Below the pieces are notes generated by a model. That model saw nothing but the letters and a program-made list of their open reading frames with translations. It ran no database searches and was not told the origin of the DNA. Of a stretch of DNA of 64,000 nt, positions 7,976-34,210 are shown piece by piece (positions within the stretch are counted from its first letter, which is position 1; every line of letters begins with the position of its first letter). This stretch comes from Acidimicrobiales bacterium (lineage in GTDB: Bacteria > Actinomycetota > Acidimicrobiia > Acidimicrobiales > Aldehydirespiratoraceae). Location of the stretch: contig OY730440.1 of assembly GCA_963422655.1 (NCBI GenBank), forward strand, positions 1,908,054 to 1,972,053, read 5' to 3'. A program made the position numbers and the translations under genes.

Positions 7976-8109
7976 GCCCGCTTCGGGGTGTGACGGCCGG
8001 GTCCTGTGCGACGGGAGCCTGTGAATCGAGTCAGGGTCGGAAGGCAGCAGCTCTCAGCAGAATCTTCCGGGTGCCGCAGACCGCCTGGCCGTCACGCCCG
8101 GAAGCGGGC
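7976..8109 (+). ncRNA. ffs: SRP RNA (4.5S)
   Basis: Helix-8 signature TCAGGGTCGGAAGGCAGCAGC inside a long hairpin closed by GCCCGCTTC/GAAGCGGGC; sits between tRNA-Ser and dnaX. Confidence 0.93.
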
Positions 8110-30956: not shown

Positions 30957-31262
30957 GTGGCCAAGCTCCGGCTGTTCGCCTCGGCCAGAGAGATGGCCGG
31001 TCGCAGTCACGACACCATACCCGGCGCCACGGTTCGAGAGGTGCTGGAATGCGCCTGCGAACGCTACGGTCGGGACTTTGCGGGTCTGTTGGAGATATGC
31101 CAGGTGTGGCTGAACGGCGAGCCGGTCGGGTCCGGCGAACCGGTCGACGACAGCGACGAGGTCGCAGTGCTGCCTCCCGTTTCAGGGGGTGACGGCCCGG
31201 CCCGGCCGTCACTGGCTGGGCTCGGCGAACCGACCTCCAGCGTTACCCTGCCCGGTTCGTGA
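30957..31262 (+). CDS. MoaD/ThiS sulfur carrier (GG not terminal as written)
   Basis: LFA..RE.AG, NG, DEVAVLPPVSGG followed by 23 extra residues. Confidence 0.85.
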   Translation: MAKLRLFASAREMAGRSHDTIPGATVREVLECACERYGRDFAGLLEICQVWLNGEPVGSGEPVDDSDEVAVLPPVSGGDGPARPSLAGLGEPTSSVTLPGS

Positions 31263-32476
31263 TCCGCGTCGCGGCCCTGTCGCTGCACACGTCACCTCTG
31301 GTGCAGCCCGGACGGGGCGATGCAGGCGGGATGAATGTCTACGTTCGCGAGCTCGTCTCGTCTCTGGCCCAGACCGGCGTGGAGACCACCGTGTTCGTGC
31401 GGCGATGGTCCGATGCTCCCGATGTCGTAGAGGTCGAGCCCGGCTTCAGGGTCGTCCACATCGACGCCGGTCCTTCGGACCTGGCCAAGGGAGCGCTGCT
31501 GTCCGTCGTCGACCGGTATGCCGACGGTGTGCGGGCCTGTCTCGATGGGTACGAGACCGACGTTCTGCACGCCAACTACTGGCTCTCGGGGGTGGCCGGG
31601 CACCGGCTCAAGCACGAGCTCGGGCTTCCTCTCGTCTCCACCTTCCACACCTTGGCCCGGGTCAAGGCCGAGACCGGGGACCCCGAACCGCAGCGCCGGG
31701 TCGAGGCCGAAGCCGAGGTGGCGGCCTGCTCCGACGTGATCACCGCCAACTCCGGGGTCGAGTCCCGCCAGCTCGAGGAACTCTACGGCGCCGATCCGGC
31801 CCGCGTCCATATCGTGCCCCCGGGCGTGGATCACGCCTTCTTCTCGCCCGGGGACCGGGGCGGAGCCCGGGTTGCGCTCGGTTTGGGTGCGGGGCCGATT
31901 CTGCTGTTCGTCGGTCGTATCCAGCCCCTCAAGGGTCTCGACGTGGCTGTCGGCACCTTGGCCCGTCTGGTCGAGTCGGGCCACCCCGATGCCCGGCTGC
32001 TCGTCGTCGGCGGCGCCTCGGGCCGTGAGGGCGAAAGAGAGTTGCGCCGCATCAGTAGAAAGGTTCGCCAGCTCGGGCGGGCGGATCGGATCGACTTCGT
32101 TGCGCCCCGCCCCCATCACCTGCTGTCCACCTACTACCGTGCTGCCGACGTGTGCTTGGTACCGAGCCGGTCGGAGTCTTTCGGTCTGGTCGCCTTGGAG
32201 TCGGCTGCCTGCGGCACGCCGGTGGTGGCCGCTGACGTCGGCGGCCTCCGGACCCTCGTGGACCATGGCCGGACCGGCCATCTGGTGGGTAGTCGCCACC
32301 CGGGCGACTATGCCGCTTTGGTCGATCGGATACTGACCGACCCCGACCATGCCGATGCCCTGTCTCGAAACGGGGTCGCGATGTCCAGTCGATACACTTG
32401 GGCCGCCACCGCCGCTCGCCTCGAGCGGATCTACCGCGATCTCTGGGCCCGTCGGCTCGTGGACTGCATGGCCTGA
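31259..32476 (+). CDS. mshA: D-inositol-3-phosphate glycosyltransferase
   Basis: HTSPL.QPG.GDAGGMNVY, YWLSG, GRIQPLKG, ESFGLVALE; followed by ybjN. Confidence 0.88.
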   Translation: MIRVAALSLHTSPLVQPGRGDAGGMNVYVRELVSSLAQTGVETTVFVRRWSDAPDVVEVEPGFRVVHIDAGPSDLAKGALLSVVDRYADGVRACLDGYETDVLHANYWLSGVAGHRLKHELGLPLVSTFHTLARVKAETGDPEPQRRVEAEAEVAACSDVITANSGVESRQLEELYGADPARVHIVPPGVDHAFFSPGDRGGARVALGLGAGPILLFVGRIQPLKGLDVAVGTLARLVESGHPDARLLVVGGASGREGERELRRISRKVRQLGRADRIDFVAPRPHHLLSTYYRAADVCLVPSRSESFGLVALESAACGTPVVAADVGGLRTLVDHGRTGHLVGSRHPGDYAALVDRILTDPDHADALSRNGVAMSSRYTWAATAARLERIYRDLWARRLVDCMA

Positions 32477-32484
32477 GGCCTGAG

Positions 32485-32949
32485 GTGGAAACGGCGCCCG
32501 CTTCTCCTGACGAGCTGGACCGGTACGAAGCGTTCATCGACTCGTGGCTGGAGGCCGAAGCCGACAACAACTGCACTATCGACGCGGTCGAGCGCCCGCC
32601 GGCGGGAGAGCGGCGTTGGTACGTGCGCATTCACGGCGAAGAGAAGGACGTGTGGACCATCTGGTTCACGCTGGGCCAGCGCACCCTGCGCTACACGACC
32701 TACCTGGTTCCGGCGCCCGAGGAGAATCATGCCCGTTTCTACGAGCATCTTCTGCGCCGCAACCGGGGCCTGACCGGGCCAAAACTCGAAATCGGCCCCG
32801 AGGATGCCGTGTATCTGTCCGGGGCCGTTCCGCTGGCTCACGTCACCTCTGCCGGCCTCGATCATATTCTGGGGTCGATGTATGCCGCGGTGGAGTTGAT
32901 CTTCCGGCCCGCCATGCGCATCGGGTACGCCTCGAGGTTCAAGGGCTGA
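32485..32949 (+). CDS. YbjN-domain protein
   Basis: GEEK, PEENH..FY..LLRRN; conserved position after mshA. Confidence 0.82.
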   Translation: METAPASPDELDRYEAFIDSWLEAEADNNCTIDAVERPPAGERRWYVRIHGEEKDVWTIWFTLGQRTLRYTTYLVPAPEENHARFYEHLLRRNRGLTGPKLEIGPEDAVYLSGAVPLAHVTSAGLDHILGSMYAAVELIFRPAMRIGYASRFKG

Positions 32950-32975
32950 ACGGCGGCGACTGCCCCGTCCCGGCA

Positions 32976-33114
32976 TCCGTAAATTGATTTGCATTCTAAT
33001 ATATTTCAGATCATTCTGATCATATTCCGGTGGAGTGACTGCAGCGGACGTTCGGGGAAGTGCGACCGATGCTCGCTCCACCGGAATGAGTACCCGGGTG
33101 TTCACCTAGCATGG
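32976..33114 (+). repeat. 139-bp direct repeat, copy 1 (promoter + hairpin)
   Basis: Identical to 33278-33416. Confidence 0.95.
33024..33087 (+). ncRNA. Candidate hairpin sRNA, copy 1 (copy 2 at 33326-33389)
   Basis: 12-bp perfect stem ATTCCGGTGGAG/CTCCACCGGAAT starting at the predicted +1 of TTGCAT-17-CATTCT. Confidence 0.55.
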
Positions 33115-33119
33115 CGGGT

Positions 33120-33281
33120 CCGTTTCTCCTGACGAGCTGGACCGGTACGGAGCGTTCATCGACTCGTGGCTGGAGGCCGAAGCCGACAACAACTGCATCT
33201 TCTGCGGCGCAACCGGGGACTGACCGGGCCAAAACTCGAAATCGGCCCGAGGATGCCGTGTATCTGTCCGGGGCCGTTCCG
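33120..33281 (+). pseudogene. Decayed second copy of ybjN
   Basis: Two fragments matching ~32498-32576 and ~32745-32831, with substitutions and an indel. Confidence 0.9.
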
Positions 33282-33416
33282 TAAATTGATTTGCATTCTA
33301 ATATATTTCAGATCATTCTGATCATATTCCGGTGGAGTGACTGCAGCGGACGTTCGGGGAAGTGCGACCGATGCTCGCTCCACCGGAATGAGTACCCGGG
33401 TGTTCACCTAGCATGG
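33278..33416 (+). repeat. 139-bp direct repeat, copy 2
   Basis: Identical to 32976-33114. Confidence 0.95.
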
Positions 33417-33421
33417 TGGGC

Positions 33422-34210
33422 GTGACCCGGCTTCAGGTGATCGGTGGCGGAAGGATGGGCGAAGCCCTGCTGGCGGGGCTGATCGCCTGCGACTGGGCGG
33501 CACCGACCGACTTTTACGTCGTCGAACCCAACCAGACCCGCCGGGCCGAGTTGGCTGTGACGGTGCCGGGCCTGGCGCTGGGCACCGCCCCTGTCAGCGG
33601 CGTCGATGCGGTCATCGCGGTGAAGCCGGATCTCGTAACCGCCGTTCTGCCCGGTCTGGCCGCGGCTGGGGTGGGCCGGGTGCTGTCGATCGCGGCCGGA
33701 GCTCGAACCGGTGCCATAGAGTCCTGCCTCCCGGCCGGAATCCCGGTCATCAGATGCATGCCCAATACTCCGGCGCTGGTGGGCAGGGCCGCCACTGCAA
33801 TTGCCGCCGGCAGTTCGGCCACCGCCGACGACTTGGCCTGGGCCACTTCGATACTGGCCGCGGTCGGGGTCGTCGTCATCGTGGACGAGGCCGATCTCGA
33901 TGCCGTGACCGGATTGTCCGGCAGCGGGCCGGCTTACCTGTTCGAGCTGGCCGAGGCTCTGCGGGCCGCCGGTGTGGCTCAAGGGCTCGACGCCGGGATC
34001 GCTGACGTCCTCACCCGTCAGACCCTGCTGGGAGCGGCTACCATGCTGGCCGGCTCCGACCGGGACCCGGCCCAGCTCCGGTCCGACGTAACGTCCCCCG
34101 GCGGCACGACCGCCGCCGGTTTGGCCGTTCTGGCCGAGGCCGGCTTCGAGAGACTCTTCGACCGGGTGGTCGCGGCGGCGACGGAACGATCCCGCGAGCT
34201 GGCCGGATGA
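33422..34210 (+). CDS. proC: Pyrroline-5-carboxylate reductase
   Basis: GGGRMG, AVKP, RCMPNTP, GSGPAY, TSPGGTT. Start either ATG 33413 or leaderless GTG 33422. Confidence 0.96.
   Translation: MTRLQVIGGGRMGEALLAGLIACDWAAPTDFYVVEPNQTRRAELAVTVPGLALGTAPVSGVDAVIAVKPDLVTAVLPGLAAAGVGRVLSIAAGARTGAIESCLPAGIPVIRCMPNTPALVGRAATAIAAGSSATADDLAWATSILAAVGVVVIVDEADLDAVTGLSGSGPAYLFELAEALRAAGVAQGLDAGIADVLTRQTLLGAATMLAGSDRDPAQLRSDVTSPGGTTAAGLAVLAEAGFERLFDRVVAAATERSRELAG

Follow-up and report, generated by a model that had tools for sequence, protein, structure and literature searches.

Why should a promoter-bearing hairpin stand twice, letter for letter, on either side of the decayed remains of a gene that was duplicated with it? 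The question is raised by the spacer between ybjN and proC in a 64,000-nt stretch of the genome of an Acidimicrobiales bacterium of Candidatus Aldehydirespiratoraceae (the window, within which all positions are counted; the genome under study, G000, is a single contig of 3,008,857 bp, and all features described here lie on the plus strand). A direct repeat of 143 nt, each copy of which holds a putative promoter and a 64-nt hairpin, occupies 32976–33118 and 33278–33420, and an initial annotation of the locus read it as a regulated, stand-alone small RNA (sRNA) under selection at two copies. The stand-alone RNA gene of that proposal is supported, and the selection for two copies and the regulation are not. 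We give somewhat better than an even chance to the reading that a recent, strain-specific tandem duplication copied a spacer holding a previously undescribed small structured RNA gene, conserved across the class Acidimicrobiia and autonomous in the family to which G000 belongs.

The duplication is real, recent, tandem and strain-specific, a minor event at the level of the strain. Its two units, 302 nt apart and the only copies in the whole genome, are 99% identical; the 139 nt that had been called identical (32976–33114 and 33278–33416) agree throughout, the sole mismatch lying beyond them at 33115/33417. In copy 1 (direct repeat D1, one of the two genome matches) the promoter P1 and the gene for the hairpin RNA are followed by an orphan duplicate of the proC −10 box (TAGCAT, 33107–33112), which stands 5′ of the ybjN remnant with no start codon at the proper distance; copy 2 lies immediately 5′ of proC. 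Between them, at 33120–33277, the remnant is made up of three pieces colinear with ybjN (direct repeats D2, D3 and D4, of 78, 54 and 36 nt) with four substitutions in 168 aligned nt (33123, 33150, 33207 and 33219). Offsets step from 622 to 450, 449 and 302, corresponding to deletions of 172, 1 and 147 bp, so that the colinear pieces and offset steps confirm a remnant with about four substitutions, a 1-bp indel and two deletions as first described. Both large deletions fall at microhomologies of 3–4 nt (GCA, TCCG), and a 57-aa frame running across the remnant has no Pfam match. The segment originally duplicated would have measured about 622 bp, from early ybjN to the start of proC, and its second ybjN copy would have been shortened later by deletion through these microhomologies.

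Four sequencing runs of one study contain the stretch, and their Logan contigs were aligned to 32400–33900. The 139-nt repeat forms a unitig of its own at roughly double the depth of the adjoining unitigs (30.5 against 14–18 and 16.8 against 8–9 in runs X1 and X2, which belong to one sample), and unitigs with zero differences span every novel junction in these runs (33085–33180, 33168–33275 and 33252–33307); X1 and X2 possibly represent the source sample of the assembly, so that they attest consistency with the reads and not independent replication; a degree of independence comes from X3 and X4. The junction between remnant and unit is also spanned by a contig from another sample (X3, 33246–33900). 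With all junctions carried by read-derived unitigs and the repeat at doubled depth, the misassembly that the initial annotation had allowed for is set aside. Run X4 also contains a strain about 2% diverged, whose contigs enter the unit from ybjN (32935–33015) and from proC (33288–33900) and overlap by 30 nt if there is a single unit; none covers the remnant. This sister strain probably has a single unit, of which the contigs give no proof.

The same data bear on whether the unit is a miniature inverted-repeat transposable element (MITE) or a repetitive extragenic palindromic (REP) element, the former having been named at the outset as a possible explanation. As in such elements, an identical hairpin-bearing stretch occurs more than once; unlike them, the two tandem copies of G000 arose from a local duplication that also carried ybjN, and relatives have one copy at the same locus. 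We reject this candidate, there being only two copies, 302 nt apart, and just two of the 88 matching family genomes having more than one match.

The hairpin itself (33024–33087 in copy 1, 33326–33389 in copy 2) folds at −38.3 kcal/mol (z = −5.6), a stability that none of 200 shuffled sequences attains, with a G+C-rich stem and the apical sequence UUCGGGGAAG. Its fold and the inverted repeat that marks it (I3 in copy 1, with apical UUCGGGGAAGUG and a covariance-model match of 51.9–54 bits) bear out the 64-nt hairpin with an apical segment that had been proposed to start at 33024. BLAST of the 143-nt unit against 60 relatives retrieved only a 38-nt piece in G001, a genome of the same genus; the family is invisible to sequence search alone. 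In G001 the ybjN–proC spacer nevertheless holds an AT-rich promoter followed by a hairpin with two compensatory stem changes and the same apex, and a hairpin of variable stem with the apex CUCGGGGAAGUGYG is present in the spacer of all 22 family loci where proC follows ybjN.

Covariation of the stems across the class, which the initial annotation had put forward as a check on the hairpin, is found throughout, with 93–96% of cells paired against 37–52% in controls. RNAalifold applied to 22 family sequences gives 16 pairs, 10 of them with compensatory double changes. In an alignment of 58 family sequences 93.1% of cells are paired, compared with 37–52% when the structure is slid along the alignment, and 138 cells carry double changes, compared with 9–34; none of 500 shuffles reaches the observed value. 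One covariance model (R2) served for the family search, and another (R3), for whose construction only family sequences were taken, was applied to 40 outside sequences belonging to other families and orders: in their alignment 95.9% of cells are paired (38–49% when slid), 14 of 16 pairs are compensatory, and double-change cells number 152 against 20–41. Many of the pairs are G-U or U-G, which places the RNA on the proC strand. Across the class the hairpin measures 55–95 nt, and the only universal sequence is the U-Y-GGGGAAG of the apical loop (GGGGAAG at 33356–33362 in copy 2, whose hairpin rests on the fold, the covariation and the G-U pairs). In many lineages outside the family, sequence conservation extends to the outer stem (GGCCCGAGG / CCUCGGGCC), whatever the reading frame, and therefore reflects constraint at the level of RNA.

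Within Candidatus Aldehydirespiratoraceae, R2 matches 88 of 107 genomes (66 of the 79 of good quality), representing 10 of the 11 genera. More than one match is found only in G000 (two) and in G108 (three, in a fragmented assembly with 7% contamination), and the element is missing from genus g4 (0/4) and from 11 of the 39 genomes of genus g5. The g4 loci L007, L013 and L023, together with L029, present a natural loss, useful for comparison, in which ybjN is kept, the hairpin is gone and the membrane-protein gene that follows the hairpin in g5 comes directly after ybjN. A search with a YbjN alignment yielded 80 loci, all from metagenome-assembled genomes (MAGs) of Acidimicrobiia, the nearest labelled Candidatus Aldehydirespiratoraceae or Aldehydirespirator and others Microthrixaceae, Iamiaceae or 'Acidimicrobiaceae'. 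The element is present in 67 of these 80 ybjN loci of Acidimicrobiales MAGs, 54 being recognized by R3 just 3′ of ybjN (E ≤ 0.1) and 13 more by a scan for the loop motif plus fold. Elsewhere in the order, 23 of 148 sampled non-family genomes match at E ≤ 0.01 under strict filters; 15 of the 17 loci inspected have a hairpin with a GGGGAAG loop, and 11 of those adjoin ybjN. Five genomes from other orders of the class also match, the hairpin lying 3′ of ybjN in every locus examined and being followed by proC in four of five.

Outside the class, the model matches 4 of about 140 genomes, one match being canonical (in a fragmented assembly with 4% contamination), one plausible and two false. The canonical copy, L193, comes from a genome listed under another class of the phylum (G517; 880 contigs), and is either contamination or a true outlier. 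The exact 16-nt apex occurs twice in G000, in five of eight genomes from other orders of the class and in none of 23 sampled genomes of the same order, where apices differ by at least one base; beyond the class it occurs in 1 of 369 genomes, which is not above chance given 3 of 401 for a reversed-pattern control. Among the genomes searched, this distribution looks like that of an RNA family limited to Acidimicrobiia and normally present as a single copy.

No known family accounts for it. A cmscan of 32400–33900 against Rfam 15 placed nothing over the hairpin at E ≤ 10, in agreement with the initial annotation, which had recognized no known family; the same search of seven loci from other genera and families at E ≤ 1 gave one unrelated weak match only. 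A full-text literature search, at the level of its search results, turned up no paper on an element of this kind, nor any small RNA described for Acidimicrobiia. By comparative criteria the hairpin represents a well-supported, previously undescribed RNA family, absent from Rfam 15.

What drives transcription of the hairpin is suggested by the sequence ahead of it. The pattern TTGNNN-N16-18-TANNNT occurs within the 95 nt 5′ of the loop in 78 of 94 instances, compared with 4 of 94 in the 95 nt downstream and none of 94 on the opposite strand. The −10 box ends 6–9 nt before the first paired base, and the transcript would therefore start at the foot of the stem. We infer that a sigma-A-type promoter is conserved ahead of the hairpin and that the RNA begins there, with its 5′ end base-paired. 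In G000 the corresponding promoter P1 is the TTGCAT-N17-CATTCT already pointed out in the initial annotation, read at 32989–33017 in copy 1 (TTGCAT 32989–32994, CATTCT 33012–33017) and at 33291–33319 in copy 2 (33291–33296 and 33314–33319), at the same place as the relatives' promoter; the hairpin begins six bases after CATTCT, which puts the putative start of copy 2 near 33326.

Two features of this region may be recorded in their own right. A conserved AT-rich context, TTTCA-TTGCAT-TTCA, surrounds the −35 box, with TTTCA(T) words repeated about 11 nt apart in most loci (for example L018, L100 and L189); its role may be that of an UP-like element or of a binding site. In G000 a short direct repeat, GATCAT-TCT-GATCAT, stands between the −10 box and the hairpin, at 33311–33325 (33009–33023 in copy 1). 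G001 and G002 are about a dozen bases shorter here, and the two observations together suggest that a minor local duplication shifted or weakened the ancestral TANNNT box of this lineage.

The genes that follow the hairpin are of many kinds. When 131 loci were classed by the gene after the loop (some genomes being entered twice, as with L090 = L160, L005 = L103 and L014 = L136), proC lay within 450 nt in 51, a major facilitator superfamily (MFS) transporter gene followed in 16, something else followed in 52, and 12 had no element. In genus g5 the next gene, which starts about 170 nt downstream and apparently has a promoter and a Shine-Dalgarno sequence of its own, encodes a membrane protein without a Pfam family, and in several families an M23 peptidase gene (PF01551) lies about 150 nt downstream. 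In genus g2 (L084, L085, L145–L149 and L154) the gene is convergent, the orotidine 5′-monophosphate (OMP) decarboxylase gene pyrF (PF00215) ending about 45 nt past the loop, and 15 of the 18 g2 genomes keep the element though it has no co-directional gene to lead. An unterminated hairpin transcript in g2 would be antisense to the 3′ end of that gene. At L015, L017 and L021, other genes stand between ybjN and the element.

Even where proC follows, it appears not to depend on the hairpin. Of 54 proC loci, 49 have a TANNNT box that ends 5–8 nt before an in-frame start codon, and the out-of-frame control gives 1 of 54; loci whose hairpin is a kilobase away are included. In G000 the box is TAGCAT (33409–33414), 7 nt 5′ of the GTG, and the leaderless proC promoter that the initial annotation had drawn from it (TAGCAT-N7-GTG) extends class-wide; to judge from this pattern, proC appears to be leaderless across the class and independent of the hairpin. 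Translation from the loop has no constant outcome in the family, frames from the loop GTG or the next start varying in length between 1 and more than 130 codons (9 in G000) and sharing no conserved peptide. A peptide as the product was rejected in this family, loop frames having no conserved product, and so was translational coupling to proC: the stops of the loop frames follow no pattern relative to the proC start, and about one-third would end at a GTGA overlap by chance.

The hairpin has its own promoter and is conserved whatever its neighbours, as expected of a stand-alone gene, with the −10 box of G000 itself being weak. Because of that promoter, the varied or even convergent downstream genes, the leaderless proC, the lack of a conserved loop frame and the lack of an MFS gene in G000, we favour the view that in the family of G000 the hairpin is an autonomous non-coding RNA gene, as far as comparison of genomes can tell. 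Two further candidates were discarded: a riboswitch, since only the apical loop is invariant class-wide and the downstream genes (proC, MFS, M23 peptidase, membrane protein and convergent pyrF) are unrelated, and an intrinsic terminator, for which the G+C-rich stem is present and the U-run is not.

Several observations weigh against an autonomous gene. G000 is among the 16 instances that fail the promoter pattern, its −10 box being CATTCT and not TANNNT, and a simple sigma-70 scan of 32400–33900 found no promoter-like and no terminator-like sequence, TTGCAT/CATTCT falling under its threshold; expression in G000 may be weak. No U-tract terminator lies in the same interval, which leaves the 3′ end undefined, and transcripts may continue into proC; in relatives, too, 3′ tails are mostly not U-rich. 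A sequencing-run search found the stretch in no run recorded as RNA, and the start, the 3′ end and the expression are predicted from DNA. All genomes compared are MAGs, and the two covariation alignments (A4 and A6) were fitted to the model structure, which favours the pairing counts, and consist of related sequences. No convincing target of the loop emerges in G000, where words complementary to it are common (one 10-mer has 20 copies), most probably through their occurrence in coding frames; 16 such sites lie near crude gene starts and none is consistent, from rough gene calls in one genome. Finally, the MFS genes that start inside the hairpin in some lineages show that the element can be a plain 5′ leader.

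These MFS loci deserve closer description. In 15 of the 16, the transporter's reading frame is open from a GTG or ATG found −1 to +5 nt from GGGGAAG (directly after it or 2–5 nt on), the two codons interchanging at the same place, so that GGGGAAG has the position of a Shine-Dalgarno sequence for the MFS gene. The 3′ arm of the hairpin supplies the first 10–25 codons, and the N-terminal tails so encoded are not conserved as protein. The gene stands between hairpin and proC at L088, L090, L096, L150–L153, L159, L161, L163, L165, L175, L181 and L189, in several families, and encodes a protein of about 405 aa that resembles DHA1 efflux pumps and falls below all NCBIfam cut-offs (the best model, a bacillibactin exporter, scores 85–98 bits where 600 are required). 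An orthologue is missing from G000, whose closest match shows 30% identity over half the length. In the other orders of the class the MFS gene is missing from all five hairpin loci examined, with proC directly after the hairpin in four, and on this ground we lean towards a later capture of a pre-existing hairpin by the MFS gene, as suggested by gene order; the opposite order, in which free hairpins are orphaned MFS leaders, is possible. For G000 itself, a translational leader of an efflux gene was rejected, there being no MFS orthologue and the loop frame stopping after nine codons.

Such loci invite the more general reading, possible though rather unlikely in our judgement, that the element is a cis-acting 5′ module, which protects a message through its paired 5′ end and displays a Shine-Dalgarno sequence and start codon in the loop. 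In G000 it would then act through read-through into proC, giving a second, leadered mRNA, or through interference with the leaderless promoter, or else be a slowly decaying relic of an MFS leader. The MFS frames that open within the hairpin speak for it, as do the co-directional placement of the next gene in most loci (46–370 nt from hairpin to proC start in 51), the lack of a terminator-like U-tract and the compactness of some loci, in which only about 7 nt separate the hairpin from the proC −10 box. It fits poorly with a proC that keeps its leaderless promoter, and no Shine-Dalgarno sequence, in 49 of 54 loci, with the convergent neighbour in g2, and with next genes that start 150–170 nt away in g5 and the M23-type loci, in g5 apparently under their own signals. 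Nor would a relic be expected to persist: in a family without the MFS gene, 10 of 11 genera retain a covarying hairpin where a relic would have decayed, and the five MFS-less loci of other orders mark that gene as a possible later arrival.

If the hairpin is an autonomous RNA, its loop offers a hint of how it might act. A UCG or UUG followed by GGGGAAG has the form of the U-turn loop that presents a seed in antisense RNAs, and the use of the loop as the MFS Shine-Dalgarno sequence in other families means that it is probably accessible to ribosomes. We tentatively propose, at distinctly less than even chances, that the RNA works through this exposed purine loop, which resembles a Shine-Dalgarno sequence and would pair with a pyrimidine-rich sequence elsewhere, for instance a CUUCCCC-like site of an mRNA or the anti-Shine-Dalgarno end of 16S rRNA.

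A related, improbable idea is that the hairpin, made in abundance, attracts a protein or the small ribosomal subunit as a decoy or binding site, through a loop that mimics a natural ligand such as a Shine-Dalgarno sequence or the apical part of 16S rRNA helix 45. The invariance of GGGGAAG, far exceeding what the Shine-Dalgarno sequence of a dispensable gene needs, would be accounted for, as would the loop's employment at MFS loci as a ribosome site and the near-consensus, AT-rich promoters of relatives. The ancestral apex CCGTTCGGGGAAGTGCGG also agrees with the helix 45 hairpin of G000, CCGTACCGGAAGGTGCGG, at 14 of 18 positions, ungapped and hairpin on hairpin, including the stem steps U-G, G-C, C-G and C-G. 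By a rough estimate, however, a 14/18 match somewhere in about 4.5 kb of rRNA has a chance of about one in five, and the match could be fortuitous; helix 45 has a GGAA tetraloop where this element has a hexaloop, and the closing pairs differ as well; the family apex GCUCGGGGAAGUGYG is less alike, no candidate protein is known to co-vary with the element, and ybjN, the constant neighbour, persists in the hairpin-less genus g4. A more specific form of the idea, which we hold to be no less doubtful, is an abundant mimic of a ribosome ligand, whose U-turn GGGGAAG loop would titrate small subunits or a loop-reading factor, with the MFS gene later capturing a hairpin that already bound ribosomes; if true, the RNA could shift the balance of leadered and leaderless translation in a lineage with leaderless genes such as proC. 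The UYGGGGA loop was also considered as a mimic of the tRNA-Pro anticodon loop and rejected, given a loop of unsuitable size, the predominance of C at position 33 and the many lineages in which the element and proC are no longer linked.

We return to the two copies, and to the claim that selection for a double dose of a regulated sRNA kept them identical while the co-duplicated gene decayed, which we regard as very unlikely. In its favour, the copies differ at none of 139 nt and the remnant at 4 of 168; comparison with the sister strain shows the four changes of the remnant all to be derived, so that the remnant is decaying; and a second copy could compensate for the weakened CATTCT box of G000. 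The contrast is not significant, however (4/168 against 0/139, p = 0.13; against 1/143 for the whole unit, p = 0.38; Fisher's test), and a single copy is the rule among family genomes with the element. Compared with the strain about 2% diverged, the hairpin has one change in 64 nt, in an internal loop, and the other 79 nt of the unit have eight (p = 0.042), a contrast that shows purifying selection on the hairpin. The identity of the two units includes these spacer positions, which differ freely in the sister strain and on which selection for the RNA would not act, and for this reason whole-unit identity points to a young duplication or gene conversion as the better explanation. Regulation fares no better: the short inverted repeats TCAGA-N4-TCTGA and GATCA-N3-TGATC, taken as operators, are present as described, but changes at 33320 and 33322 in the diverged strain break both, and they have no counterpart in G001 or G002.

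That the hairpin is merely the terminator of a glycosyltransferase–ybjN operon, a palindrome acting as DNA or an assembly artefact is hardly tenable, for although it always lies 60–250 nt past the ybjN stop where the two adjoin and has a G+C-rich stem, a conserved promoter separates them, as do other genes at L015, L017 and L021, no U-tract follows, termination requires no invariant loop sequence, the G-U pairs mark RNA-level constraint on one strand, and read-derived unitigs confirm the assembly.

Among the closest known systems, 6C RNA (RF01066) is likewise a small, independently transcribed actinobacterial RNA with conserved letters in its hairpin loops and variable stems, and both presumably pair through their loops with no need of Hfq; 6C RNA has two hairpins with C-rich loops, in contrast to the single hairpin with a G-rich loop here. 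G000 gives no match to RF01066, cmscan reports no 6C RNA at the locus, and the present element is confined to Acidimicrobiia. The antisense RNAs of plasmid copy control, with their kissing loops, share the long stable hairpin, a loop beginning with U-N-R (UCG/UUG here) and a conserved 6–7-nt possible seed; they differ in that no complementary partner loop or target was found here and in that this element is chromosomal, single-copy and class-wide. Translational attenuation leaders of the tet, cat and erm genes resemble the MFS-type loci, 15 of 16 of which have the Shine-Dalgarno sequence and start codon in the hairpin; here, unlike in those leaders, the Shine-Dalgarno sequence lies in the loop and not the stem, no leader peptide is conserved, and the hairpin persists without such a gene. 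With the 5′ stabilizing stem-loops of ompA and aprE the element has in common a putative start at the foot of the stem and a paired 5′ end; those stem-loops need no invariant loop and are tied to one message, whereas this element keeps loop and promoter before unrelated or convergent genes.

Acidimicrobiia are abundant in soils, waters, sponges and wastewater, and almost none have been cultured. For this poorly studied class the element provides a well-supported RNA family that is single-copy, syntenic and strongly covarying and has its own predicted promoter, and its covariance model can be used at once to annotate the element in MAGs. Its double use is unusual: in some families the hairpin stands free, and in others it contains the ribosome site of an efflux pump gene together with the first codons. 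The element is thereby a natural system in which to ask how a free RNA turns into a translation start, or arises from one.

The surroundings of the repeat are G+C-rich and, by Pfam, comprise in order a glycosyltransferase gene, ybjN, the spacer, proC and a gene of the S-adenosylmethionine (SAM) hydroxide adenosyltransferase type. The first, 5′ of ybjN at 31259–32476, encodes a family-4 glycosyltransferase (PF00534, PF13439 and PF13579) that is presumably MshA-like. The intact ybjN-family gene (32485–32949; PF10722, E = 7.8e-9) has orthologues in 37 of 40 family genomes, and proC, for pyrroline-5-carboxylate reductase (33422–34210; PF14748 and PF03807), starts at a conserved GTG that aligns with the starts of its relatives. 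The hairpin is not the signal recognition particle (SRP) RNA in disguise: the SRP RNA of G000 (RF00169, 66.3 bits) is found at 7995–8093, about 25 kb upstream of the hairpin locus.

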